A stretch of 64,000 nt of DNA from Selaginella moellendorffii (taxonomy: Eukaryota > Plantae > Lycopodiophyta): the NCBI RefSeq assembly GCF_000143415.4, contig NW_003314409.1, forward strand, positions 62,001 through 126,000, written 5' to 3'. This document shows positions 1,393 to 41,248 of this stretch, in pieces. A program made the position numbers and the translations under genes. The notes beneath the pieces are model-generated. The model had not been told where the DNA came from. It did not search any database and saw only the letters and a list, made by a program, of their open reading frames with translations. The first letter of the stretch is position 1; each line of letters begins with the position of its first letter.

Positions 1393-2869
1393 GTTGAGCT
1401 CTCCAACAATCTTGACGTGCGGATGCGTGCAAACTGCTCCTTGAGCCAAGACCATTTCTCCAGGAGATAACTTATGCTACAACACTCTCCGCTTGACGAT
1501 CTCAATGTGGAAAGATCCACAAAGCTGTCCCACTCATCATAGTTGTAGAAGAAATCATCCTCATACTGCATCTGCAACCTTGCTCGATCCGCCATCACAA
1601 GCTTCTCCCTCATCTTGATCAGCTCACACTTGAGGCGGCAAAACAAGTCCAGGTCCTGAGGAACAACAATGGAATACACCTTTCCCGGGTACCTGTCTCG
1701 AAACCTGTGAAAGTACAGTGGACGATGTGGTGTTTCAGATCGCAGCGGAATGATAACTTGATGAAAGCAACAAAACCATCGAGCTCGCTCTTTGGGGATC
1801 AATTACCATTTCCTCCTTTGAAGCAATGAGCAGCAGGCCTTGATCGCATCCAGAAGTACTAGAGATAGTCTGAAAAAGCAAGTTTGACACCAGTTATTTT
1901 GGCACACAGAAGAAAAATAAACTCAAGTTTCAAAATTTATAGAGATCCATACAATCCAAATCAAGATCAATCCTCCACGAATTTAATACCGCTTTCAGCA
2001 CCTCCATGCTCTGCCGAAAAACGTAGCCACGGTATGCCACAATCGTTCACTTGAAAATCTGAAGATGTCAATCGAAGCATGCAAGCAAAAACATGAAGTA
2101 AAGAAGCGCAGGTGGACAACAAAGGAGATGAACTGAGCGAGGCCAAGAACACATATAAGGACTGACTGTAAGCACGTGAGGCCTCGCACAGTTTTTTCCT
2201 CCGTGCGTGGCTTCATATGCGAAAGAGTTTGGTGTGGTAAGGTATGTTGCGGAGCAGCCAGAAGCCCAGGGTGAATATAAGTACGTGAGGCCTTGTGAGG
2301 TTTTACCACTGCCCAAGGACTCCTGTGCATGGGCCCCGGGCGAGAGTCATTTGCAAAAGTGTTCTGCATGAAACTGGTGCCCTGAGGCTTCTGGCCGCGT
2401 CGCCCCATGAAGAGCATTTTTTATTTAATTTGTGTAGAGTGTGGTTTATTTTTGCATATTGAGTGTATCGATATCTTTTAGTTAGCAGATTATATTGAAG
2501 AACTGTAGACTACCTACAGTTAAGTGCATGGAGCAACAGATCATATAAAAAATGAATGCAGAGAATAACAAATCGGGATTTCTAGGAAGTTCGTGCGTGT
2601 TGTTAGTAATAATAATAATAATCATAAAAACCTGATGTTCAGCCAGTTAGAAGATTGTCTGAAAATTATGCATGTACTGATTCTTCAGCTCTTGAGCAAC
2701 TGATTGCTGCTGGCTCACTTTCTATATATATCAAAGAGATTTTTTTTAAACAATAAACATCTAAGCTGCTGCAGTTAAGCTGTGACATTGTAAAGTTTAA
2801 AAAGAAAAAGAAGAAAAAACAGAAAACACGAGCGTTTTACTACTACAGTTAAATCGGGATTTCTAGGGT

Positions 2870-5800
2870 ATGCGTGCGGCGCTAGGGTTTGTGTGGTGTG
2901 TGTCATTTCTCAACAATCTCATGGAGTGGAAAACGTTTTTCAGGGATCCCACTTTCTGGTGGGACAACAGGTTCAAGAAGAAAAACAAGTTCTTCTCAGA
3001 GTCCTACCTGGATTTCAAACATGTTTCTACCGGAGAGAGCCTGTGGATCGCCAACAGGAAAACACCAACCTGGGTCTCAGCAAAACTCGAGTCGCTCGCT
3101 GACCCAGCTGTAGGTAAGGCCACCACGGCCCGCTACAAATCTCCACATACCCCACCTGTAGCTGGCGATGAACGGGTGAGTTTAGGGAGGCTGATACACC
3201 GCGTGAGAGACTCAGCTGAGAGCAGATCCCTTTCTTTGGGAAAACAAGCCCATGAAGCTGTGCTCAAGAGTGATGAGCACAAAAGCAACATCTACTTGTT
3301 GACGGGATTGATCGATATGTACTGCAAGTGTGGCGAGCTTGAGGAGGCTCGCAAGATTTTCGACTCCATGGGAACCCGGAGTGTTGTGTCCTACAACGCG
3401 ATCATCCAGGGCTGCGGCTCGAACGGGCAAGCTGAACTTGCTCTGGAGTACTACTCTGCCCTGAGAGCTTGTACCACCATTCAACCCAACGATCGGACAC
3501 ATGTTGCGGTGATCAGCGCCTGCTCCAGACTTGCTACCGAATCCAGCGAGAAGAGGGAGAGAGCTCTACGCATCGGGATGGAGATCCATTCAATGCTGAG
3601 CAAGGAGAAGAAACAGCTAGATCTGTTCGTGGCGACTTGCCTGGTAGACATGTACTGCAAGTGTGGCGAGCTTGAGGAGGCTCGCAAGATTTTCCACTCC
3701 ATGGGAACTCGGAGTGTTGTGTCCTACAATGCGATCATCCAGGGCTGCAACACGAACGGGCGAGCTGAACTTGCTCTGGAGTACTACTCTGCCCTGAGAG
3801 CTTGTACCACCATTCAACCCAACGATCGGACTCATGTCGCGGTGATCAGCGCCTGCTCCAGACTTGCTACCGAATCCAGCGAGAAGAGGGAGAGAGCTCT
3901 ACGCATTGGGATGGAGATCCATTCAATGCTGAGCAAGGAGAAGAAGCAGGTAGATCTGTTCGTGGCGACTTGCCTGGTAGACATGTACTGCAAGTGTGGC
4001 GAGCTTGAGGAGGCTCGCAAGATTTTCCACTCCATGGGAACTCGGAGTGTTGTGTCCTACAACGCGATCATCCAGGGCTGCGGCTCGAACGGGCAAGCTG
4101 AACTTGCTCTGGAGTACTACTCTGCCCTGAGAGCTGATAACACCATTCAACCCGACGATCGGACACATGTCGCGGTGATCAGCGCCTGCTCCACACTTGC
4201 TACCGAATCCAGCAAGAAGAGGGAGAGAGCTCTACGCATCGGGATGGAAGTCCATTCAGTACTGAGCAAGGAGAAGAAACATCTAGGTCTGTACATGGCG
4301 ACTTGCCTGGTAGACATGTACTGCAAGTGTGGCGAGCTTGAGGAGGCTCGCAAGATTTTCCACTCCATGGGAACTCGGAGTGTTGTGTCCTACACCGCGA
4401 TCATCCAGGGCTGCAACACGAACGGGCGAGCTGAACTTGCTCTGGAGTACTACTCTGCCCTGAGAGCTGATAACACCATTCAACCCGACGATTGGACTCA
4501 TGTCGTGGTGATCAGCGCCTGCTCCACACTTGCTACCGAATCCAGCGAGAAGAGGGAGAAAGCTCTACGCATTGGGATGGAGATCCATTCAATGCTGAGC
4601 AAGGAGAAGAAACAGCTAGATCTGTTCGTGGCGACTTGCCTGGTAGACATGTACTGCAAATGTGGCGAGCTTGAGGAGGCTCGCAAGATTTTCCACTCCA
4701 TGGGAACTCGGAGTGTTGTGTCCTACACCGCGATCATCCAGGGCTGCAACACGAACGGGCGAGCTGAACTTGCTCTGGAGTACTACTCTGCCCTGAGAGC
4801 TGATAACACCATTCAAGCTAATGCTTGCACCTACACCTGCGTCCTTGTTGCTTGCGGGAGTGTGATGGCGACCAAGCTCGGGAGGGAGATTCACCAGCTG
4901 GTGAAGCATAAAGGGCTGCTGAAAAACAATCCAGTTCTGGGCTCCAGCCTGGTGAGCTTCTACGGCAAATGCGGTGATGTTGATTCTGCTCAGGAAGCGT
5001 TTGACGAGTGCCGAGCTCGGGACAACACGGGTCTCTGGAACTCTCTCATACAGGCTTACACTCTCCAGGGCCGATCGATCGAGGCCTTGGAGCGTTTCTA
5101 TTCCATGACTCAGGAGGAGGGCTGTAAAGCTGACGATGTGAGTTTTGTCTCGGTGTTGAACGCTTGCAGCCATGGTGGTCTGGTCGGGAAAGGAAGGCAG
5201 CTTCTGGATGAAATGCCCAAGCAGTATGGAGTCAAGCCACGTCTGGAGCATTATGTGTGCCTGATCGATATGCTCGGGCGAGCTAACCTCCTTGACGAAG
5301 CTGTGAGAGTTCTCAGAGCCATGCCTTTTGAACCGGATGCAGTGGTTTGGACGTCCCTGCTCGGAGCCTGCCGGAAGTGGAAGAATTACACGATCGGCAA
5401 ACTCGCGTTTGAGCGTCTTGTGGAGATGGATCCCAAGAGCGGCACGCCCTACGCATTGATGGCCAATATATTTGGAAACCTGGGGATGCTCAGTGAAAGG
5501 GCCGCTGTGGAGAGAATGAGAGGTGAAGGCAGCTTCAGGGAGCCCGGGAGAAGCTGGTGGACGGATGTTAGCTCAGGAAAAGTGCATTCTTTTTCTGTCG
5601 GGGATAGGAGTCACTCACAGAGCGACGAGATTGTGGCCAAGCTCAAGCAATTGTTGCTGAGAATGAAAGAGGAGGGGTACGTGAGCGATGTGATCAATGT
5701 TCTAAAAGACATACCCGATGAAGAGAAAGAGGATCACCTGTGCGGCCACAGTGAGAAGCTTGCGCTGGGGTGTGCTCTGGTGAACTCGCACCAGAAGGAA

Positions 5801-7356: not shown

Positions 7357-8649
7357 TCACATGCAAATTTGCAGTTGGTATTTGGCTCTTTGATCAGAGA
7401 CCTAGGTCCAGAATCAGCTGGTTCATCACGAAATATGGTGACATTTTTCCCTCTGCTCCAACTATGATGAACAGTAGCTGAGGAGAGAGAAGCTAGCAAA
7501 GCATCCCGCTAACAAAACCACTAGCTGTCTCACGTGACACAACACCTCCAGCCATCAACGGGGTCAGAAAAGAAAGAAAGGATAGGAGCAAGTGACTATT
7601 TCTCCTCTTCCTCTGGAATGCATCCAAGTCATACTCAAAATTAGGAAACAACATCATCCTCAGCTTCCCATGTAGCATCATATGGAGAATAACCATTCCA
7701 CTGAACAAGAGTTGCTACACAATACCATCTACACTAACTAACCCTAACCGAACTCAAATAGATATAATTTTCTGCATTGCACTATGCAACAATGTTTGGT
7801 TTGCTTTGATATTGTCAATTTTTACATAAATAAAAAATTTATATGATGTACTCATTTTAATACATTTTTTTATTCATATGTACTTCTTGTTTATCTCTCA
7901 AAGAGTTCAATTAATGTTTTTTTTATCAATTTTATTCTTCCTATGGCAAGCTTAAAGCAAATAGTGAAGAATATAAGGAAGAAGTCCTACACTCTTGCAA
8001 TACTAAAATCTTGCAAACTTTCCTTTGAGAACATTATTACTAGTCAAAAAGTTCACTTTTTTTTAGTAGTCTGATGTGTTTGTCTTTATAGCATGTCCAT
8101 AAACAGAAAACAAGGAACTTTTTACTTGCTCCTCATAGTAGAGTATCACAGTGATAGAAGAAGTTTGAGCTTCTTCTCCATGCAATGGGCAACAATATAA
8201 TCAAGTGGCTGTAGTGATTGATACAACAGTTCTCCTGGATCTTGCTTGTCAGGCTGGCGTGGCTAAGACACTGATAAAGGTAAGTTATGCAAAGATTTAA
8301 TAAGGTTTTGCTGGATTGTCCTTACTGGGCTTACAGTTAGATCATGGGTGATCAGGAGCTCACAGTTTTGCACAAGATTTGATCAAACATGTTTCTTGCT
8401 TGAGCTAGGATTTTTGATCTGCCATGGGTTGTGATCAATGCATTCACAAAAGGTGCCGGAATGAAATCCAACAGCTTAAGCACTTTCAAAAGACACCCAT
8501 TCTAGGCATTTGCAGTGATCATTGCATTCCAAGAGACCAAAGTCCTCTTGCTCAAAACTTCCTGCTATGCTCATGATCACATTTCCAAGATTGAGCTCCA
8601 TGTTTCTAGAATTCTTCTGTGAATCGTCACTTCTTTCTCATACTGCACA

Positions 8650-10820
8650 GGTCACAAATCACCCAAGAAATCGCCTCATGGAGGCTGCAACACTCAATAG
8701 TTCTAGGACTGGCAAACAAGCCCTGTCCCATGGACAGCCACTGCTCCTTACGTGGGAATGTGCACATTACAGAGGTTCGTTTCTGTTTTCCAGTCTGTCT
8801 TTTAACTCCTCAAATGTCTTGATCATTATGAAGAAGGGAACCCATTGAGAAAATACAGTGTTGGGCAGACTGTTCGAGCTAAAATCCTTTCAAAACGCAA
8901 AACCAGCAGAAAGCACAGAAATGCTGCCACTTTGGATTTATCTCTACGTCTGCAGGTCTGTATGGTGGCCCTTTGAATTAGCTTACTTATCATGACTTGC
9001 AGGAAACGATGCTGCATGCTCAGTGATTACTTTTGAGACCGTAACCATTGAACAGTCGGTTATCAGATACGTTCAAGAAGTAAAGGACAACTGGGCATGG
9101 CTAGTCCTCTCACCCCATCTTAAAGGCTGCCTTTTTATACTGGACACGTCTGACGATCCCTCGGAGCTTGAACGTTTTTTAAAGAGCACTTCAAAGTCGG
9201 TGACCTGTCAGTTGCCATATAAGAAGTGTTAACCACGAAAGGAAGCAAGTGGATTTGTCTCTACACCCGAAAGCAAGTGACGAACAATTCAAGAAAGGCG
9301 ACCTGTTAGGCCGACGAATCACACGAGTTTTTGCTGGTGTTGGCGGACATACTGTGCAAGGCAGATGGGAAAGTTTCGGAAAAGTTCATGTAACGATACA
9401 TGGATTGATGACCCAGCCAGTTTATTTACAGAGGGACAGTTCGTAAGGTGCAGGGTCTTGGATTTAAAACGACCAGGGAGGGGAAAGATGGGCTTGGAAC
9501 TTTCAGTAAGTTGGTGGACGTGGTGGTTTTGAGTCCCTTCCGAGCTATCAAACACTACTTCCGCATTAAATTTTTTTGACTCTGCATCCAATGCTCGTAT
9601 TGTCAATTCCGTGTTGGAACTTAAGCAAGATATGAAGTGCAAGTAAGCAGAAACCTTGCATGCTGTGGACGTGACTTGTTTTTGTGTTGCAGGGTTTTGT
9701 CAAGAATGGACGGAGAAAGGTTTCACTTGAAGCTAGAATTCAACTGAAGAACCTATCGAACTCGTTTGTACAAAACCCTGCAGAAATGTTTCCACCAGGC
9801 AAGGTGATATCGGGAAGGTATGAACTTTTCTCCGTATGGAAGTGTTTGCTGATATCTTCTTCTTCGTCAGAATTTTAAGCATCGAGCCATTGTCTGGGCA
9901 CATTGAAATGTCTTTGACGGCAACAACGTCACAAGATTCAAGTGGCTGGAAGAAGTTTGGTGCTGGAGAGATCGTTAGTGGCCGCATACACAACATTGAA
10001 GCATTTAGGATCTTCATCAGCCTTGCCGAGAGCGATGTGGTAAGCTCTCTCTCTATCTTGGTTTCAAGTTCTTAGTCTGTGCTCCAGGTTGCTTGTGTCA
10101 TGTCTCTGAAGTGTTTTACGATTTTATTCAAGACTTGTCAACACTTTACAAAGTCGGCCAATGGGTTCAAGTAAAGATTCTAAAGGTGAGAACAAAAGCT
10201 TTAGTAAAACCACAGGGTTATGATTTCCCTCTAGGAAACCAAACGTATATCTCTTGGAATGAAAGCGTCATATCTGACCCCTGAGGATGGCATCGAGACG
10301 ATGGAGGAAGAAGCTATAAATGAAGAGCCTTCGAACACTAATGTGCTCATGGATAATGATGAGAGGGAGCATCAAAACGATGCCCACAGCTATGCATGTC
10401 GATCCACTCTCAACAAAGACGTTGAGGATACAGTGCCAATTGACTTGAAAGAGCAGAGTTACTTCTTGTTTATATTTACTCTTCTCATGTCCTGCTTCTC
10501 AACAGGGAGGCTGCAGCAAAAGAGAAGTTATTACAGAAGGACCAGCCTCCAGAGACCAAGGACGACTTTGAAAGGCTTGTAGCAGCGTCACCAAATAGTA
10601 GCTACGTGTGAATCAAATGCATGGCTTATTGGTTGTGTCTTGTGGACCTGGACAAGGTGCGAGCAGTGGCTGAAAGGTAACACTCTACTCGCATTTGATT
10701 CTATTTTTCTTTAGGTGTTACAATCCAAGCTTTTTTTTATAGGGCATTGGAAAAGATAATTTATTGAGAAGAAATGGAAAAGATGAACATATGGATGGCT
10801 TATCTCAACCTAGAGAATTC
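8650..10820 (+). pseudogene. RRP5: RRP5 (rRNA biogenesis protein, S1 repeats plus HAT/TPR C-terminus) fragment with frameshifts and stops, ending just before an LTR retrotransposon
   Basis: Spliced pieces give S1-domain motifs (GNVHITE, LEARIQLKNLSNSFVQNPAEMFPPGKVISGR, GEIVSGRIHNIEAF, LCHVSEV) and the HAT start PETKDDFERLVAASPNSSYV*IK...RAVAERAL...NIWMAYLNLEN. Boundaries approximate. Confidence 0.8.
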
Positions 10821-11449
10821 TCTTCTAGCATTTGAAGAGCAAATGGCAATTACTTTAGGTGGTTATAATGATCATGGAAACTACTATAGTAAGCATGCTT
10901 GTGTTTGGGGATGGAGATCAAGGGTATGGTAGAAGATAATGTTGGGGATATATTGTGGCAATTTGTTATTGACCACGTGGTCAAGGTCGGTCAAAGGGAG
11001 GCTCAAGGGCATGTTAGGGTAAGAAACTTAAACACAAAGGAGCTTTTGAGGTAGTTTGGGGGTGGTAGTGAGGAACCTCAAAAAGAGGTGTAATCTAGTC
11101 TAGGAAGACTAAATCGTTGATTTTTATGTTGGGTCATAACATTAGTATAAAAGGCATTGGTTGTGATGGCTGACCAAGCTGAACACTGAAATTCTATTGT
11201 CAATGGTAGTGCCGATGATAGTGTTAATGGAGTTGCAGAGGTTTGGACCATAGAAGATATTGTGCACAAGCTGCAACCTTGCGTAAGCATGTTGAGGCAC
11301 TCGAAACTGGTTATGGTGGCACTCCAAATAAGCCTTTCTTGGCAAATCAACTTAAGATTACCTTTTTTGGTGATGATGGTGTGTATGAGTGTCTAATTTA
11401 GCTAGCCAATATGAAGAAGTTCTTGGCTGCTAGAGGAATTCTAGATGCA

Positions 11450-30045: not shown

Positions 30046-30374
30046 GGGATCAAACTACATAACTTTGCAGGGTCCAAGGTCCAGAATATAATGCAGCTTC
30101 GAAAAGCAGACGTGCTGCCACGTTGCTCCCAACTTTAGCATGCAAACGTTTTTTTGCTTTCTCATTGGCTTTTAACCTCTGCCTCGCGGCAAAGAGGCCG
30201 AGGATCTTTTGTTGAGTATGCCAACATTTCTTTTACAGCATGTAAAAGTCACGGGAGATGAATCCGTTATTCCACGATGCCTGGTTTGCATCGTAAGACG
30301 GATCGAGAGACCTCGATCCTTGCAAATTGATCGACGACAGTAGTAGAAGTGATCCTAGAAAATTAGCATTATGC

Positions 30375-30394
30375 TCTATTTCGTTAAAGTGGGA
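30375..30394 (+). repeat. Left terminal inverted repeat
   Basis: Exact reverse complement of 40935-40954; also present at 1368-1387. Confidence 0.92.
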
Positions 30395-31030
30395 TTTATT
30401 CAGTAAAATGGGACTAGGTACAAATTTTCAAGTATTTGAAAATGACGTGAAATTATATGTTTTTTGTCCAGGGGCTAGACATATCTGGGGCATGGTGACT
30501 AGCGCGGTGACTTTATGTCCAGACTGAGTCCATCTGGTTGTATAATAAATCTCATTGTCAAGGTGAACAAGCCGAATCTGAAGCTAAAGAAGAGCGATGG
30601 CATGCGCGCACACACTATTTGTTTGTTCATTGAGCGTGTGGTGAGCTTTCCAAGATGAACGTCAATCCTATTAGCCAGACATATAACTTAATGGTGAGAA
30701 CATTTAGATATTATTCAATGTTATCTTTTTCTAACGAATCTAATTGTGAAGGTGTAGCAAGAGGCATTGCTAGTCTGGAGAAGTCATTTAACTCATTTGA
30801 CCCTTAGTGTATTTTCATGAAACTAAATAACATTCATATTATTAAGGAATTTCTCTAGTACCTTTTTTTTACGACATAGAGGCTTGCATTTCTTTCAAAG
30901 GTGATTTAGTAAAAGGCCTGAGGGCACATGCCATTCTATTTCTCAGACCGGTATTAAGATATACTAGTGCAAAGGGAAAAAGGTATTTGGTGATCAAGTA
31001 AATGGCATGAGGGCACACGCCATTATAAGC

Positions 31031-32584
31031 CTAAGCGCTAGTGGACACCTCCTTTTTGGTACTCTCAGCGGTACTATCATCCTTCTCCGGGTCAGTTGTT
31101 TTGCTTTGGATTGTTGTCTCTGACGTTACTGGAGCGTTCTCGATAGTTGTTAATGTTGCCGTTTGTTCAGAAAAATGATCACCTGGAGTATAGTACGGGG
31201 AGTTTGGAAGACTTATATATTCTACATCTTCACCTATCTCCTTCTTCGTCTCCTTTTCTGCCTCACTTACAGATTTTGTGCTTGCCATGAGAACGCTCTT
31301 CACCCTAAAATATGGAGTTCGTTGTGTTATAAAAGGAAACCAACACACACGCTGCAAGGGAATGATGGTACATAAAGCACGTAAGCCCACAATATGGGTT
31401 TATGTGCCATTAATATAGGCCACACGCCATATTATTAGATTTATGCACGTGTGATTGGTAAATGCATATGTCACATCATCTTTGTTTTACCTCACACACT
31501 ATATCAGGCCTAATGAACCATATCACATGTGCGCACATGCTATATATATGGAGAAGTATTATGCAAGGATAGAAATTCAATGCATGATTGTGGAGAGCAA
31601 TGGCATGAAGCCACATGCTAAATAACATTTTAGATAAAGAATTAAAATAAAAACATGCAAACAGTACTAAGTGGACCAAGACTTAGAAGTGCACAATTGA
31701 ATGAGGTATTTCTAATAAATACTTCACTCACCTCATATAGGAATGGCTACCACTCTCAAATGGCGTATCGCCTCATGCCATCACCTCGCAATTTGTTATA
31801 ACAATCCGATGAATTCATATTCGGCTTGTTCACCTTGAACTTTAAGTAAGATTTGCTAGAACAACTAAGAATTTATACTTGTTATTTGTATCATCTCACC
31901 TAGGAATGGCGTAAGGCCACATGCCATCACGCCTCCTCTGATTCAGATTCGGATTGTTCACCTTGAAATAAAATACATTAGAAACTTAGTAAAGGAATAT
32001 TCATGAATCTCACCTTGAACCCGGGTTATGAATGCTCTTGCTGCATCTCTTGCATGGTCTGGCAAGGTGATGGTGGCACTCTGCTTCCGCATCCAACCAT
32101 GCACAACATTATCCACCGATATGCTCATGCTGGGATCCCTTGGATTCAGCACCCATCTCTTTTCTAGGCAATCGTTCGTATATCCGGAACTTGGCTTGAA
32201 CCACTCCACAGTTACATTGAAGGAGTTAGTTTCCGCGTCCTCCTCTGCATCAGTGATGTAGCGCCCCACCCATATCATTTGTTTTTCATTACTGGGTCTG
32301 ACAAGCACGACCATTCCTTTGCAGACCTGTACTGGATTGAATGCTGAATCCGGCTTCTTGTTCCTCGGCCCACAATAGTGATCCTCAACATCATTACTGC
32401 AAGCCTTTGACAGTGTATAACAAAGTTCCGATCCATAGACACAAGGGTCCCTTTTGCAACTCTCTTCCCACCATTCAAAATGTAAACCTTTTCCCCAACC
32501 CTGAAGGCCATTCTGAAAGTGCAGAAAAGAAGTTAAGACCATACAAAAAATGATTGGAGAATGGCCTAAATCATAACATACCAA
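31031..32584 (-). CDS. Element-borne spliced (possibly frameshifted) gene of unknown function; beta-rich domains followed by an acidic Ser/Thr-rich tail
   Basis: ORFs 32275..32511 (VAKGTLVSMD..IHCQRL), 31958..32584 (GMVVLVRP...IWVGR...VTVEWFKP...) and 31031..31390, linked by GT-AG-like mini-introns. Exon structure uncertain. Confidence 0.45.
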
Positions 32585-32877
32585 ACAACCTCAATAGCAT
32601 GAGGCCACATGCCATTATTCAAACAGGCTATTGACACCCACGTGAAATTTCGCATTCACAAAATTGGCATGAGCCCTCATGCCATCTTGATATACACACA
32701 GCTGCAGGCAAGTAAAAACATACATGACAATACGCTAGCCATGAAATTGCAAGGGCCCAAGATGGCATGTGGCCTCATGCCATTTCTAAATGTGGTCCTA
32801 AGCCATTCCATGGTGAACATACCAGGAAGCACAAGTGCCGAATATCAAGAGGAAGCGGTAGCCACACCAAAGACAGT

Positions 32878-32947
32878 GCCGCTCGCAACACCGCAACTAC
32901 TCGTAGCGCCGCTCGCAACACCGCAACTGCTCGTAGCGCCGCTCGCA
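32878..32947 (+). repeat. 30-bp tandem repeat GCCGCTCGCAACACCGCAACT(A/G)CTCGTAGC
   Basis: Two full copies plus degenerate GCCGCTCGCA units to ~33010. Confidence 0.85.
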
Positions 32948-33842
32948 CAAACTGCCACTCGCATAAACTGCCGCTCGCAATGGCGCTCGCAATGCCGCAA
33001 CCGCTCGTAGACGCATAAACCACAGCCCACAACGCCGCTTACACAAACAGCGCTCACTGCGCTCAGCGGAACCAAGAACACGGCGCACAAAAATGATAGA
33101 CCTAGGAATGAGTTCGAGAATTCAAAAATAACACACGCTTGAACGTCACATCAAATCCTCTGACAAACCAGATCTTATGATTCCTCTGACAAATTTCAAA
33201 CTGAGTAGCTTCTAGACTTTGCTGTCGGAGGTTGAACTTTGTCACATCATGTCCTTGCCTCGATCCAGCTGTGCCATGTCAGTGATTCGAACTTTGCCAT
33301 GCCATGTCAGCGATCCGCGCCAAGATTATTCGCCGTGTAAAGGAATAATTATACTGTGTGTGTCCGTCCATTTATGGCAATATAAGACCACACGCCATTC
33401 AAAGAATAATGCTCGACATAAGGCCACACGCCATTCAAAGAATAATGCTAGTCGAGCATTTTTTGGTGCATTTTTGGGTTCAAAATTGCATGAGCCCACA
33501 CGCTATAAAGTTTACCTGTACCAAAAATAGAAACAGCTTTATTTACTTGGGAATTTAAGTGGTTGAGGCATTTTTAAACTTACAAACACATGCCCTACTT
33601 ACATTCCTTTGGTTGCTTAAAATTCAAAAATATTATAAACCTTTCTTTTTGCATTTTCAATGTTTTCAATTATGGTTTTTGATTTTCGTAGGACCAGCCT
33701 AGTAATCTATTTGCATCCCGTCATGTTTGTAGCTAGCTTTCGTTTGTCCCCTTCGCTAGCCTGAGATACATCTGCTCGGCATCTGCCTCTTACAGCATTT
33801 GCCCAGAAAGGGCATCTTTCTTCACGCAGCATTTGCCACATG

Positions 33843-33868
33843 TTTAGGGTTTAGGGTTTAGGGTTTAG
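33843..33868 (+). repeat. Interstitial plant telomere repeat (TTTAGGG)3TTTAG
   Basis: Read directly from the sequence. Confidence 0.9.
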
Positions 33869-34786
33869 CAATTCAGTAGCTTGATAAACATGCAAATACA
33901 GAACTTGATGCAAAATCCTTTGATATGTCACAATGCCCCTAGGACCATAAACACATTTCAATAGAGAGGGTCCTTTCATTTCATAACTTCTTACGTAGAT
34001 CTTGGTGAAACCAGAGTTAGTGAAGTTAGTTTCTTGTGATCCCGCATCTGATTGTGATGTCCCTTTGCAGTTTCGATGGAAAGGTCAATGCACACCAAAC
34101 TGTAAAATCTTGGAGCAAAATCACGGTCGGATTTATGGCAAATGCCCCTGAAACATTGTAAGGCTCGTGTGGTCTCATGTGGTGTCCGATCGAGATGCTT
34201 CTTTGCAAAGTCAGCTACTGGGCAGTGTTTCCGACGCCGCGGAGTCTTATTTAGCTGAACATCTGCCATTTTTGGAAATACAAGATGCTTTGGAATATCC
34301 AATCATGCATGGTATAAATATAGCGAGGGTATTAAATGATATCCCAATCATGATCTTTCTTTTGGATTTCGCGTGAATGCAGTCCGAGGAATGATGACGT
34401 TGCGGATTTCTTTTGGATTTTGCGTGCTTGCATGCGCGCGGCAATCCAGAAATTAATGGTGGCGCCCAAGTCCGAGGAATGATGACGTGGCGGGATTACC
34501 AACCGTTGTGACATTTCGCGCGTGTGAGGTTAGGTTTTGCATTTTGCTTTGTACTCGCGCTCGCACACTCGCGCTCGCGCTCGCATCACACTCGCGCTCC
34601 CGCTCGCATCGCGCTCCCACTCGCGATCACGCTCACTTCTCTACAGGTTTCTCGTGTGCATCGGCGTCCACTCGCGCTTGCATCACACTCGCACTCGCAT
34701 CGCGCTCGTGTGCATCGGCGTCCACTTCAAGACACACCCAGTTTGTAACTTCGCCGCCAACTCCGCCGCCCACTCCGCCACCCACA

Positions 34787-37700
34787 TGCAGCCCACTTGG
34801 CGTCTCGGGAGATTACAGCACCACTCTCCAACTGTAAGTGGCAGAGTAGCCTTGCTGCTACGATCCGCTGCACACACAGTGCACATTCGCCAGCGAGTCC
34901 GGCCTCGATTGTCACGGCCTCCATTCGGCTTCAAATGGTAAGTCTTTTAGACCAAGTAGAAAATGGCATGAGGCCACATGCCATTCAGTAGCAACATTGG
35001 CATGCACCGATTGGGCTCTCGAGTGCAGTCCGGTTACAGATGGCGTGTAGCCTCACGCCATCTTAGGATGCAGCCTCAAGACATCTGATGCAGTGGTGAA
35101 TGGTGTGTGGCCTCACGTTATTTCCAGCTGCTAGCTTTTCATCTGTCAGCTCTAATTGTTGTGCATTTCTGAACAGGCGAGGAATTGCGTTCTTCTTCCA
35201 GCCACTGTCAATGTGGATGCAGAGAAGGGGGAGGAGCTCACCAGTTGGACTTTCGGGATGGAAGGCGAGGATCTGATGCTGTACAACACAGATGGTGGGA
35301 GAAAAGAATGCATGGGGATCCTCATCCAAGTGACAGACACTCCATGCAGTTCCATGCAAGAATATGGACTGGCACTTGTGGTAGAGACAGCGTCCGCCTT
35401 CAAGATCCACCTTGCACATCCTAGCGGCTTCCCGGAGGGGGGCAGCAGCTATGAGGAATTCCTAGAGGGAGCTAGGGAGAGGTTGTCCAGGAGGCCCACA
35501 ATTTCAAAGACGCTGCGGGTCTATGAAGATCACATGGAATCCACGGACCTCACCTACGGCGATGTTCAAAAACTATATTCCAACATTGAGCCGTTGAGAG
35601 TGCCTCCAGTTTGCGAAGCGAAGGGGAAGGGGGTCGATCTGGAAACTACCCCGAAGCAGAAAAGGGTGGTCAAGCTCAAGCCGACGTCCAACTCTGCTGC
35701 TCCAAAAAAGAAGCTACTCGGTGATGCCATTGCCTCGGGTTCGAACACTACACCCACCAAAAAGAAGAGCCGCAAAGAGCAGAAAGAGCAAGAAGAGGCA
35801 GCAAAAATCGTCGCAGATAATAGTACTTGTTACTATTCCAACAAAGTATATACAATCGACGTGAGCCGTATCGAGATCCAAAGCAAATACAACCACAGGC
35901 TAGTATCTGATGAGTGGGTGGAGAAACTGAAGCAGAAGATGCTGGCAAGTCCAGTAACACCCGACATCGCAAACGTGATCCCCTACTACCGAACAATGAA
36001 GGGCGAGACGAGGTTTCCAGACTTGATCAATAGGAAGGTGTTGGACGATCAGAACATCCGGTTCTATGCCATCTCCGGGCAGCATTCTAGCTTGGCGATG
36101 CAACAGATAGTTGTGGATATTATGGTGGGCGAGGAGGTGAAGAAAGTCTTCAAGACAAGAGTTGTCCGCCTGATAAAAGGCAACTCGCCCCTCTGATCTA
36201 TCATATACATCTCCCACGCGCAGAATGTCAAGCAAGAAACGTGCTACAAATTGGGTCTGCACGAGACATTGGCACGAACACGGAAGCTCTGGGTTCAACT
36301 GAAGAAGCCACAAAAACCAGGACAAGGACGTGCACTAGCAACTAGCGCCTGGCAGGTAAGCCTCGTTGCATGTGGCATAGCATGTGGCCTCACGCCATTT
36401 CCATTGCAGGAATTCTCGAGTCTTCTCTCGAAAACACTGGGGGTCAATGACACACTCAGCATCCATAACATTCTACTCGCGACAAAAGTTGTTTTTGACA
36501 AATGGGTAGATGTGCTGAGGAGGTACCATGACGGGGAGTTGCTAAACTCAATGGGTGTGGAGGACGGCCGGAAGCCCAATGATTTGAAGCTCAACGCCTT
36601 GCGTTTCTCGCGGTCTCTAGACGACGACGACCTTCTGACAGTGGCTAATGCTCTTCTACGTGATGAGGTAGTCTTCAACAAGACCAAAATGACTCCCAGC
36701 CATATTGTGACATACGAGGACTTGTGCACGACTCTGAGAGCTCGTGCGCTATTGAAGGATTGGATCTTCGAGCAAGTGGCCGTGGCGAGGGTGAGCATCG
36801 ACACCACGCAAGAGATGATGGAAGAGCTGGACTTGTCAAATGAAGACATCGACGAGTACGTGAAGGGGGCCCCCAAGTTCATCGATTTGCTGCGGGATGC
36901 CACGAAAAGTAAAGCTGAGAAGTTGGATCAGTATCCAAATTTCATTAAGAGGGATGTCGACCGCCGGCTTCAGAAACAGCTCGACCCCGCAGCAGAGGCC
37001 TATCGAGAACCTTACCGGGTATACGTGAATTCGGATGAGGATCAAAGGTGGAGGAGCATCGTTTCCCGCGGAGATGAGCAGGTCAAGAACATCTTTTGTG
37101 TGATGGACTTCACAAACGAGGAGATCACTCATGCAGACGAAGTCAGCTCCATCATTGACTTAATGGTGGGACTTGCGGAGGTGGAATCTTCAGTCCACTA
37201 TATGATCTACGACTCCGAATCCTATCACAAGTTCTGGAAGGCCTTGAACGAGGTGAAGGCTCGGTTGAAAGGCAAGGAGATGCGGGAGATCCATGGGATA
37301 ATGGCTAAGAAGAAGATACCGACGAATGTCCGCATCTTCACAGTCGCCCTTGTTATTGGTCCTGCAGCAGAGTGGGACTGGAGTGACTTCCCAGCTTCGT
37401 TCAACAAAGCCGATCGAATTGATCTGAGGGAGGTCAATTTACCCGTGCCTGAGGAACTGAAGACGGCTATGGAGCTTTCGAATCCAAAGAAAGCTCCAGG
37501 TGCAGCATGGGAAATGCTCAGCTGGGTCTTCAACGCAATAGCGGGTGACTCCAAGGGCAAATGCGTTGTCGAGTACAACTGCGGCGGACTATTCTTTCGA
37601 GCCGCACTACTCAAGGGTGTCCCGTGTGTTGCGGTGACAAACTCCATTGAAGAGGTGACTTCAATGGAGCATATAATTACAGTTGCCAAAGAAAAATAGT

Positions 37701-38786
37701 ATCTTCTCTACGAACCTGGTGAGTACGCACTTTAAGTTTAAATGTTATCTCACAAGCTCTGTATGCAGGAGCGTGGCCACCCCCAGATGCTGAAACGGCG
37801 TTAACAGCTACTGATGTTAGGCCGAGGTCACAACCTGCACAAGGTAAGGTCACGTGAGGCCTCACGCCATTTTGATTATAGATCGTTGTGAATATTCAGA
37901 CACGAGGACTGAAAAGCGCACTGGTGGCGCGTCGAAGAAGGACAAACAGACAAGCAATAGGAAAAAAGGAGGTACAAATTATATTTGCAATGGCGTGTGG
38001 TCTCATGCCATTCCTTGCAGGAGACACTTCTTCAAAGGCAAAACAGGCAAGCACCAGCCAAGCTCAAACTGACAGTGGTCATAAAAAGCGAAAGCACGTT
38101 GGACAGTCGTCGGGATCAGAGGCGTTTGATTCGAAAAGGAAGAAGGGCAACGAAAAGATGATAGGTAATGCCTCGCGGTTATGGCGTGTGTGCTCATGCC
38201 ATTCATTGCAGATCAAGGGCTGAGTGAAAGGAGCCAGTCACCACCTTCTAACTCAGATTCCTATGGCGGACTCCCCTTCCCCAATCTCAATGGAGAGGTA
38301 CAATGGATGAGGGATGCTTTTCAAGTCAGGGCCACGTTTTTCTCATCTCGTTGTCTTCGAAGGGTGCAAGAACGTGCAGAAACCATGTTAAGACAGTCGG
38401 GTGAGGATACGGTCCTAGGTCACGCACTAAAACAGGCTATGGATGTCTTGTATTTTGAGATGGAGACTTGGCCAGATGATTTTCCCAAGATGGTCCTGGA
38501 AAAACAAGCCATCCAGCCTGAGCAGCCTATGGAAGAAATGCAAGAGGGGGATGAGGAGCCAGAGAAAGATAATGAGCAGGAAGAGCAGAAGGACGAAGAG
38601 GAGGACAAAGAAGAGGAGGACGAAGAAGAGGAGGATGAAGAAGAGGAGGACGAAGAGGACTTGGATGGTCCTCACAATGGTGACGATCACAATAACGACG
38701 ATGATGATGATGACGACGATGGCCAGCCTGAGGTGGCCAAAGAGCAGCGAAGGAAGGTCATACAAGACAAACCATCAGGTAAATAA
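34787..38786 (+). pseudogene. Element-borne multi-exon gene: Lys-rich region, ParB/Srx(DGQHR)-like domain, degenerate beta-class DNA methyltransferase-like region, acidic tract; in-frame nonsense codons in this copy
   Basis: ORFs 35156..36196 and 36251..37699 are in the same frame, separated only by TGA at 36194. Motifs IDVSRI...YNHR.VS..WVEKLK...FYAISGQHS..A and NPKK.P...EMLSWV...GD...VVEYNCGG...AALLKG..CVAV. 38-54-nt GT-AG introns. Start and exon boundaries approximate. Confidence 0.6.
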
Positions 38787-39059
38787 TAGTACATCCATTC
38801 CTAACCTTTTACCATTTCTAACATTGTCCATGTAGGTCGCAGAAGAAATGGTAAGTAGAGATTATTCAGTTGAATTAAGATACAAACTCTAGCCTTTAGT
38901 GTCGAGGAAGGATAGTGCCAAGCAAGGGTCGAAACGTATGTCCAATCCTTCAAAATCAGCAGTGCGCCCAAGTGATATCGGTCCTAGCTCCTCAATAGCA
39001 GTTGATGGTAAATACAGTATAGTCGATTCAATGTGCTAATGAGTTTGTTTTTAGTAGCA

Positions 39060-40540
39060 CGGGAGGATACCATCTCAATCGAAGGGAGATATTTGGACAT
39101 GCATATGGATCCGCCAGTGGACTCTACTTGCCTGCAAGAGTCATCAGAGCTGGTGAAGGCTACTATCCATATCAACGCCAAGCAAGCTGACCACGCTCCA
39201 CTTGATGCTGCCCATACCACTGAGTCAATCTTGTCCACGTATCCAACTGACGGTGACCAGGCGCCATTGGACCCGCATGAGGCCGCCCCAGCCGCCAAGC
39301 CGGTCGTATCCTCATTTCCAACGTGTGCCCAATCGTCTGACTACGCGCCGTTGGAACCTCCCTACACCGCCCCTGCTGCCTGTTCGGTCATGTCCACTTT
39401 GCCAACGGAGGCACCAGCTGAAATGGCGTGTGATCACACGCCATCGGAACCACCCCATGCCACTGTTGAGCCAGTTGTACCAGAGTCTACAGCTGAAATG
39501 GCATGTGCCCACACGCCATCGGATGCGATTGACCCCACATTGCAGAGGAGAGTATTTCCGCTCTTCACATTTCCTCGACCAAAACCCTCTGAACGACCAT
39601 CGGGAGCACCATTCGCTAATATTGTAGATGGTAAAATTGACTTGTACCATTTTTTATGCTGACGCATTTCATTTCAGAGTCACGGCGAAAGTACTGTATC
39701 GTTTTTGATCTGAACGGTGTCCTTTTCTCCCATGAGCGTGGCTCGTCCTCAAATGTCACTGCACCCTCCAAAGCCTGCGGTCGCAAGTTGGTCAAAAGAG
39801 ACAGATTCACATTAATCACACGGGAGAAACTGCGGGATCTAATAATGACCATGCGACACTTAAAACAGAGGGCCGGGTTCAATTTGCAATTGGGAGTTTG
39901 GACATCCATGATGCGCCACAATGCATTAACGTTGCTACAGATGATGCACGATCAGACGCGAGTAATATTACCATTTGACTTTCTCCTAACGCAGGAGGAT
40001 TGCTTGACTATGGTCCATGTGAGGGGTAGCAAGCCCATCTTCGTCAAGGCAGAGGCTGTAGTGATGAACCGGACTGCTAGGTCAAGTGAAATCCTCATCA
40101 TCGATGACTCGCCGATTAAAACTGCAGCGAACACGCACACATATGCAGTGCACCCCATCTCTTGCAGTATGGAAACTAGGGAGAAGAAACCGTATGTTCT
40201 GGGGGACCTTGCAAAACGGCTTGAAGCGATGGTGATAGAGAACCGGCCAGTCCAGGAGGTGGCTGCAGAAATCAACCAAATGGCAGATGGAACGGTATAT
40301 CAGAAGCCATTTGATCGGACAGACACCAGTCATCATTTATGGCATGTATATTGTCTAGCCAAGCACTATCCGCATCTCCATAATCTGCTCAACCGGATGG
40401 GTTCTTCGACCACTGAACATGAGCGTGGTTCTCCTTGTCATCGTCGTTCAATTTCTTTCCATCCTTTTAATATTGGCTCAGTTGCTCCGAGTCTAGGTGG
40501 AGCCCAAGTCCCCATTCAATCTTTACTTTCCCCTTATTAA
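39060..40540 (+). CDS. Pro/Ala-rich exon spliced to an FCP1/NIF-type HAD phosphatase-like domain (element-borne; may be the 3' part of the upstream gene)
   Basis: YCIVFDLNGVL, GVWTSMMRHN, FLLTQEDC, KPIFVK, ILIIDDSPIK..N..AVHP. Donor GT at ~39631 and acceptor AG at ~39677. Confidence 0.75.
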
Positions 40541-40934
40541 TAAAACAACTTCGTAGACTTCCAATAACATGCTGTAACACTTCTAGTATAATGCAAATCC
40601 TCTCAAAGAATTGTCTTTTAATATTAATACAATGGCATGGAACCCCATGCTATAATAAGTTACATTTTTAAATAAATACATGCCATCTTAGACTGTTATT
40701 TTTTGCCTCCAACGGCTATACAATAATCTTGGAATTTCATCACTCTCCACACTATCAGGATTTAAACCCAATAGTAATGCCATCTCTTCTCTAATACAGC
40801 AGTGAGAAGTGATTGAGTAGACATTTCCTTGTTTAAAATAAAATGGCATGTGCCTCAATGCAGTTGAATTTTGTTATATTTATATACTATATAAAGGTTT
40901 GGAAACCTTATTTTACAAGTGGGATAATGACAAT

Positions 40935-40954
40935 TCCCACTTTAACGAAATAGA
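40935..40954 (-). repeat. Right terminal inverted repeat, overlapping hairpin AAGTGGGA-N10-TCCCACTT (40917-40942)
   Basis: Read directly from the sequence. Confidence 0.9.
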
Positions 40955-41248
40955 ATTTCATTATTGTCCTCTTGCAAGTGTATCAATTCGGAACCAATTT
41001 GTCAACGATTCCTCCTTCCCAAGACCAAGTCTATTCCAAACGGCGCGCGTCAACCGAGACACATTGTTATCCAACAAAAAATACACACGGAAACTTCGGT
41101 CCGAGTATATATACCCCTCTCAAGAGAGGTTTCTACACTCCCTCTTCTATCCAGTGCCAGTCCTCAAAGGTCAGACAGAGATCTTCGAAGCTCTCTAGAG
41201 TTCTGATTTGGCTTTTTTCTTTTTTAACTTGCAGTAGCAGTGTGTTCA

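Follow-up and report, generated by a model that had tools for sequence, protein, structure and literature searches.

The transposon and its 22-bp palindrome

A 64,000-nt stretch of the Selaginella moellendorffii genome (contig NW_003314409.1, positions 62,001 to 126,000 of the forward strand; hereafter, the window) carries a copy of a DNA transposon with two genes, namely a minus-strand remnant that is likely a transposase gene and a long plus-strand gene, here termed the helper gene. A 22-bp palindrome recurs through this element, including within putative introns of the helper gene, and we scrutinized its distribution and possible role. The main features, in coordinates of the window, are as follows.

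30373..40959, no strand assigned: multicopy DNA transposon copy, 10.6 kb (read depth, contig ends, second end copy)
30375..30397, plus strand: left terminal inverted repeat arm, 23 bp, 96% complementary to 40932-40954
40932..40954, minus strand: right terminal inverted repeat arm, 23 bp
31927..32511, minus strand: gene remnant, likely transposase
34935..40540, plus strand: helper gene of ~1,640 codons with 10 putative introns (frame, fold, NIF match, homologs)
About 35840-36230, plus strand: ParB-like part of the helper, recognized by eye
About 37000-37696, plus strand: beta-class N6A/N4C methyltransferase fold (predicted model)
39680-40426, plus strand: NIF phosphatase-like domain (Pfam, E 2.9e-6)

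In two DNA-like sequencing runs (X4 and X5), read depth was flat over the element and fell at both ends, and contig alignments began at 30373 in X5 and 30371 in X4. Roughly 70% of the element's sampled words were also present in four small runs which, together with the flat depth, is consistent with a multicopy repeat. The element is thus bounded and multicopy, with the exact end positions putative and ATTAT at 30368-30372 and 40960-40964 a candidate target duplication. Positions 1-1392 of the window are a reverse copy of the left end (30370-31761), 100% identical, set in a different flank 29 kb away, which suggests a recent transposition or duplication. The N- and C-terminal pieces of the minus-strand gene are out of frame at 32396-32400, and at this point, midway through the gene, other copies hold at least 2.8 kb more sequence; a 4922-nt record of X4 (record 17) matches through its positions 2866-4893 alone, and records 25 and 26 of X5 end there. 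This copy has therefore lost the core of the likely transposase. The remaining C-terminal piece scored 0.91-0.94 to unnamed eukaryotic clusters in the Atlas and gave a weak DUF7869 lead (0.84, 12% of members), a domain linked to Sola; a transposase is its likely identity.

The oriented consensus of the palindrome is ATGGCRTGTG-NN-CTCAYGCCAT (22 bp). A profile scan at >15 bits found 22 copies in 30370-40960, just nine of which are independent finds, the profile having been trained on the other 13. At the same threshold, no copy was found in the remaining 52,018 bp of the window (excluding the duplicate end at 1-1392), and the element's sequence, shuffled 200 times, gave a mean of 0.025 matches and a maximum of one. 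The palindrome is not due to chance and, within the window, is confined to the element. All 22 positions are well conserved among the 22 copies, while the flanks are unrelated, and at the single listed variant inside a palindrome (35104) other copies of the element carry the consensus base. Pairing between arm positions 6 and 17 is seen in 11 of 21 copies, where chance alone would give 10.6, and most oriented copies have a T.T mismatch at positions 9 and 14. Half-sites that vary independently suit two DNA half-sites better than a selected stem, and an Rfam search with the palindrome returned nothing relevant. The copies outside the short introns of the helper gene are located as follows.

30597, 30913, 31002, 31522, 31600, 31760, 31906, 32594, 32664, 32762, 33413 and 33485: twelve palindromes of the left half, all in non-coding DNA
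34963, 35040 and 35100, plus strand: three palindromes in the likely first intron of the helper gene
39423 and 39498 (span 39423-39519), plus strand: two palindromes read as protein in a low-complexity exon
40632: one palindrome outside introns and coding sequence on the right side

Introns held 10.3 palindromes per kb, compared with 2.9 for the rest of the non-coding DNA and 0.37 for coding sequence, and 13 of the 22 copies fell outside introns and coding sequence altogether. Exclusion from coding sequence was pronounced (2 of 22 copies, p=3e-5), and the two copies at 39423 and 39498, correctly placed in coding sequence by an original prediction made from the letters alone, are both of the symmetric form without the CTCA arm. 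Introns were mildly enriched over other non-coding DNA (7 of 20 palindromes, p=0.011; p=0.085 when the four coding-region introns alone are counted). Palindromes were dense near the minus-strand gene and also occupied the element's middle, with no concentration at the ends, and they do not resemble the terminal inverted repeat. Grouped into ten clusters, they were more evenly spaced than random (coefficient of variation 0.37, p=0.027), the largest gap between palindromes being 1,478 bp.

Near 35000 the asymmetric palindromes (30597-38181) reverse direction; most of them follow the direction of the gene on their side, outside introns as well as within them. Orientation agreed with the gene in 8 of 10 copies to the left of 35000 and 5 of 5 to the right (p=0.007 with this cut, picked post hoc; p=0.04 with a cut at 34000). 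A ~60-bp unit was observed at 30558-30619, 31814-31838, and 31905-31966, one of them inverted; it combines a palindrome with an acceptor-like site and a short coding stretch rich in acidic residues.

The helper gene and its introns

Removal of nine GT-AG introns turns 35192-40540 into one 1,636-codon frame with two internal stops in this copy (36194 and 37697) and a NIF end. A helical region lies between the ParB-like part and the methyltransferase fold, and a low-complexity region precedes the NIF domain, which was alone above the cut-off in Pfam scans of the element's open frames. This NIF/FCP1-like phosphatase domain reads DLNGVL where such domains usually have DxDxT. The ParB-like part was seen by eye: GQH follows a hydrophobic strand, a pattern that we presume to be the ParB motif.

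A structure model of the helper built with eight homologs (mean predicted local distance difference test [pLDDT] score 65) displays a beta-class N6A/N4C methyltransferase fold over residues 199-429. Among the top 1000 Foldseek matches, CcrM was first (probability 0.99, E 0.023). The top 18 rows in VIA were all DNA methyltransferases or annotated putative ones (Z 7.8-9.8, the next unrelated fold reaching 7.5), headed by M.BceJIV (Z 9.8, root-mean-square deviation 4.4, 178 aligned) and M.PvuII (Z 9.6). N6_N4_Mtase leads in the Atlas (0.83-0.84) and the Foldseek matches agree weakly with this fold. A single-sequence fold of the helper was unusable (pLDDT 35), three word-based protein searches and single-sequence searches of the PDB gave no match, and one 14-residue match from a metagenome scan was not used.

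Three of five phmmer matches to the helper were real, the other two (P0003 and P0005) being repeat artefacts. The best homolog is a low-copy S. moellendorffii gene, SELMODRAFT_409495 / LOC9650508 (EFJ30523.1, XP_024528744.1; E 2e-12, ~25% identity over the middle part), represented by a cluster of four records (P0002 and P0007-P0009). At 449-451 aa, it covers the helical and methyltransferase parts of the helper and lacks the ParB-like and NIF parts. It is possibly a domesticated host copy. The GT-AG segments proposed as introns of the helper gene, all on the plus strand, are as follows.

34938-34988: first segment of the original prediction, 51 nt, palindrome ending 4 nt before the last base
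34938..35176: likely first intron, 239 nt, palindromes 34963, 35040 and 35100 (open frame)
36356..36409: phase-0 intron, 54 nt, palindrome 36377-36398 ending 11 nt before the last base
37844..37881: phase-1 intron, 38 nt, palindrome 37849-37870 ending 11 nt before the last base
37972..38020: phase-1 intron, 49 nt, palindrome 37990-38011 ending 9 nt before the last base
38165..38211: phase-1 intron, 47 nt, palindrome 38181-38202 ending 9 nt before the last base
37719-37768, 38779-38835, 38851-38899, 39008-39054 and 39631-39677: five palindrome-free phase-1 introns, 47-57 nt

Comparison with the homolog supports intron 36356-36409 as real: the 18 residues that it would encode are precisely those missing from XP_024528744.1, and the JGI model of this homolog gene has two extra residues at this point. 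The homology suggests that the homolog has an intron at the same position and that this intron is old and shared. Introns 37844, 37972, and 38165 are putative and required to keep the frame, since their retention would lead to a stop after 4, 33, and 19 codons, respectively. For 37844, an in-frame alternative acceptor at 37899 would give 56 nt, and each junction offers 12-24 frame-keeping GT-AG alternatives, mostly with weaker donors. All eight introns in the low-complexity C-terminal half (37719-39677) are in phase 1, which would allow in-frame duplication or skipping of exons. At the 5' end, six solutions leave the frame open, the simplest being an ATG at 34935 followed by intron 34938-35176, and a chain of three small introns also keeps it open. 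Segment 34938-34988 has no CTNAY site, holds its palindrome in the other orientation, and is probably the 5' part of the 239-nt intron or an alternative short form of it.

These results show the original prediction, that tiny introns of the gene each house one palindrome, to be partly right and overstated. Its five GT-AG segments with one palindrome each do exist, but the first probably only starts a longer intron, and five of the nine introns downstream of 35192 lack a palindrome. Nor is their size special, as host introns in the window measure 48-60 nt (DUF547 gene) and 48-86 nt (neighbouring gene). The similar arrangement claimed for the minus strand did not hold: palindromes 31906 and 31760 are found at and past the stop codon (31929-31927), in segments flanked by AT-rich stretches that look like introns, rather than in coding-region introns.

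What the original prediction missed is that the CTCAY arm stands at the branch-point position. CTNAY is the branch consensus, and in all four coding-region palindrome introns the CTCAY arm is on the sense strand and is the sole CTNAY candidate. Its adenosine lies at -18 in 36356 and 37844 (both CTCAC) and at -16 in 37972 and 38165 (both CTCAT). CTNAY occurs at -15 to -17 in four of the five palindrome-free introns of the element and at -14 to -23 in the introns of the host DUF547 gene. If placement and orientation were random, the joint probability of this arrangement would be 0.005 (wide window) or 0.0002 (narrow window). Judged by position, the CTCAY arm probably also serves as the branch point in splicing, which would explain the palindrome's fixed distance to the AG.

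Possible roles of the palindrome

We favour, with slightly better than even confidence, the explanation that the palindrome is the helper's DNA site and that, by coinciding with the branch point, it has been able to persist along the gene within introns that already existed. The palindrome would be a double-stranded docking site for the element's own predicted ParB/methyltransferase-type helper, bound as a dimer on the two half-sites, and the helper, as ParB and VANC proteins do, may spread or act over ~1 kb and thereby mark the element, protect it, or lift its silencing. Within the helper gene (5.6 kb), the palindrome would survive mainly in ordinary short introns with the CTCAY adenosine used as branch point; the introns probably came first, and sites would have arisen in them later, when the branch site mutated or had a copy placed onto it. 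Such overlap would fit a 22-bp site into a 40-55-nt intron and fix both its orientation and its distance from the AG. The ParB-like domain, dimer binding, spreading, and branch-point use are elements that we infer. The original prediction had offered three readings, and binding sites at intervals through a coding region, with binding itself putative, fit best given the exclusion from coding sequence, the mild enrichment in introns, and the restriction to the element. A more far-reaching version is doubtful, namely that one 22-bp word acts at once as a parS-like site at which a ParB-type clamp with a methyltransferase fold is loaded and as the U2 branch point of the helper's introns, forming a self-protecting, self-regulating chromatin-marking system of bacterial origin.

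By analogy, VANC21 of Arabidopsis is the closest functional precedent; VANDALs are Mutator-like elements. VANC21 binds a motif in introns, intergenic, and terminal non-coding DNA and did not bind in tested exon probes (PMC5735166), and the element described here likewise combines a short element-specific motif in introns and other non-coding DNA, scarce in exons, with an accessory gene. However, VANDAL motifs are 8-9 bp, non-palindromic, and in tandem, VANC21 binding is demonstrated whereas helper binding is a prediction, and the accessible part of the account describes no overlap with a branch point (PMC5735166). The helper has a methyltransferase fold, and no VANC-type domain was found by Pfam in the element's open frames. 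The second comparison is with Sola1-1_Ec32 of Ectocarpus, whose accessory gene design joins ParB to an N4C/N6A-methyltransferase and for which binding and methylation of its own element have been proposed (PMC12477816). As described in the accessible part of that account, both are giant (>10 kb) DNA transposons with a second gene opposite the likely transposase, and both second genes have an N4C/N6A-methyltransferase fold and, by eye in our case, a ParB-like domain. In contrast, the host here is a land plant, there is an extra C-terminal NIF domain, and the catalytic motif is not visible; the accessible part of the Sola1-1_Ec32 account mentions no dispersed palindrome or intron link (PMC12477816).

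Several observations weigh against the helper-site explanation. No Foldseek match to the helper model (pLDDT 65) reached E<=0.001, no catalytic DPPY-type motif was visible by eye, and the ParB-like domain had no sequence match in Pfam or the PDB. As candidate binder, the transposase is equally eligible. The largest gap of 1,478 bp is unremarkable (p=0.33 when 22 sites are placed at random, p=0.087 when clusters are), and the spacing figures come from a copy with 2.8 kb deleted. Given the similarity of introns 37972 and 38165 (3' 31 nt shared at 90%) and of 36356 and 38165 (aligned loosely end to end despite different phases), these introns may be non-independent and the placement p-values too small. 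The Selaginella homolog ends about at the TAG at 37697 of this copy, a position that is not among the 40 differences listed between copies, so that three of the four palindrome introns could lie in a separately translated or decayed 3' part; another homolog (P0010) continues ~100 residues beyond this TAG. No joint skipping any proposed intron was found in eight runs (three raw RNA, five contig), in which RNA depth over the element was near nil. As ~12 in 100 reads of each raw RNA run were sampled and most aligned reads were partial at 90-95% likeness, these runs are uninformative for or against splicing. Contigs of X1 and X12 (RNA by guess) were unspliced over all or most of 34938-34988.

The alternatives share much of this evidence. 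That the palindromes served the transposase of the deleted minus-strand gene, like the TnpA sites of En/Spm, with the helper unrelated and the branch-point overlap holding nonetheless, is improbable: transposase-bound subterminal motifs are established and the palindromes are element-specific and dense around that gene, but they run through the middle of the element and are unlike its terminal repeat. A palindrome with no protein reader, spread by local duplication or gene conversion, purged from coding sequence, and kept where it supplies a branch site would account for the ~60-bp unit at 30558-30619 and 31905-31966, the 36-bp duplication at 33382/33418 seen in the window and not in X4 or X5, and the doubled left half-site in intron 36356. 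Yet 22 positions conserved across 22 copies amid unrelated flanks, the retention of two palindromes in coding sequence, and the consensus base carried by other copies at 35104 make this rather improbable too.

Two further readings had been raised by the original prediction and fared poorly. The first, an RNA hairpin that would regulate splicing of the helper mRNA by masking or freeing the branch point, would draw on the branch adenosine within the 3' arm, which a stem would cover, on the asymmetric palindromes mostly pointing with the gene on each side, and on palindromes 37990 and 38181 folding at -10.5 kcal/mol on the sense strand. The arms show no covariation, however, and most copies have the T.T mismatch at 9/14; 36377 and 37849 fold better antisense (-7.7 and -7.3) than sense (-5.3 and -5.1), and most palindromes are neither in introns nor in coding sequence, leaving only a slim chance of this role. 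Least likely is an introner-like unit of palindrome plus flanking GT and AG that made these introns. Symmetric proliferating introns are known in fungi (PMC8469720), and the pairs 36356/38165 and 37972/38165 show the similarities given above. But the 36356 junction exactly matches a distant, ~25%-identical homolog, whose two annotations differ by two residues there, as expected of an old shared intron, and most introns of the gene are palindrome-free. Pairwise alignment of the intron flanks found mostly just the palindrome and splice consensus in common, the 5' parts being largely unrelated, with no target duplication beyond the splice consensus. Symmetric stwintrons of Hypoxylaceae also are short introns sharing symmetric sequence; as far as the accessible account goes, these and other introners are near-identical whole introns at many unrelated host loci (PMC8469720), whereas here a 22-bp core is confined to one element and lies mostly outside introns. 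Host introns, which the original prediction had named as a comparison, contained a palindrome half-site in none of eight cases (five in the DUF547 gene and three in the neighbouring gene, all deduced from the frame).

In the more far-reaching, doubtful version, splicing would hold the DNA sites in place about one kilobase apart, a site that was lost or decayed would disrupt the helper mRNA, and occupancy or marking by the helper could feed back on its own splicing. An overlap of DNA site and branch point would show, for a compact genome, how an element can retain cis-sites within a long coding region and how a DNA-level signal can be conserved through splicing. Among the papers listed by a literature search, none was seen to describe this element or a transposon motif acting as a branch point, and none gave a precedent for the two parts of most interest, dual palindrome use and a land-plant ParB-methyltransferase-type helper. 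According to the accessible part of the Sola1-1_Ec32 account, ParB-methyltransferase helpers are so far algal predictions with no target sequence given there (PMC12477816). The present element supplies a candidate target sequence, a land-plant example, and a possible domesticated host copy; with this candidate in hand, binding and N4C/N6A marking become directly testable.

Classification, decay, and host setting

The element was filed as neither a Sola1 nor a VANDAL member, as no AWWT pair and no VANC-type domain were found and the transposase core, which in Sola1 elements is of the DDD type, is deleted. Terminal inverted repeats, as in Sola1, are present. The Sola1 target duplication is a 4-bp AWWT (PMC3845634); no AWWT pair was found at any boundary tried in this copy, where the best candidate was ATTAT/CATTAT. 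Other assignments were rejected. The ends do not fit those of Helitron type. GingerRoot needs inverted repeats of 100-150 bp, against arms of 23 bp here, and TA..TA or TG..CA ends (PMC6839031), while Replitrons have direct terminal repeats (PMC10288648), which the ends of this element do not fit.

This copy is decaying: 23 of the 32 differences between run X1 and the window are A>G or T>C in X1, and at the stop at 36194 all three of X1, X4, and X5 have C. In X4 and X5, 40429-40804 (the 3' end of the helper gene) is inverted relative to the window, so both the true end of the helper gene and the orientation of palindrome 40632 differ in other copies. Three telomere-type TTTAGGG units are located at 33845-33866, between the two genes. 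Just upstream of the helper gene, 34831-34870 is a 40-bp patch resembling the 3' end of large-subunit rRNA (Rfam LSU_rRNA_eukarya positions 3338-3373, E 0.31); it contains a GTAAGT donor-like site, and hundreds of RNA reads align to it alone with loose ends on both sides.

The surrounding window contains PPR-DYW genes, a decayed Gypsy element, and short introns, including five putative introns of 48-60 nt in the DUF547 gene and three of 48-86 nt in the neighbouring gene. At 7400-10900 lies a stop-riddled broken gene, pieces of which may resemble the rRNA-processing factor RRP5. Intron lengths of S. moellendorffii group with those of fungi and not with other land plants (PMC6157073).

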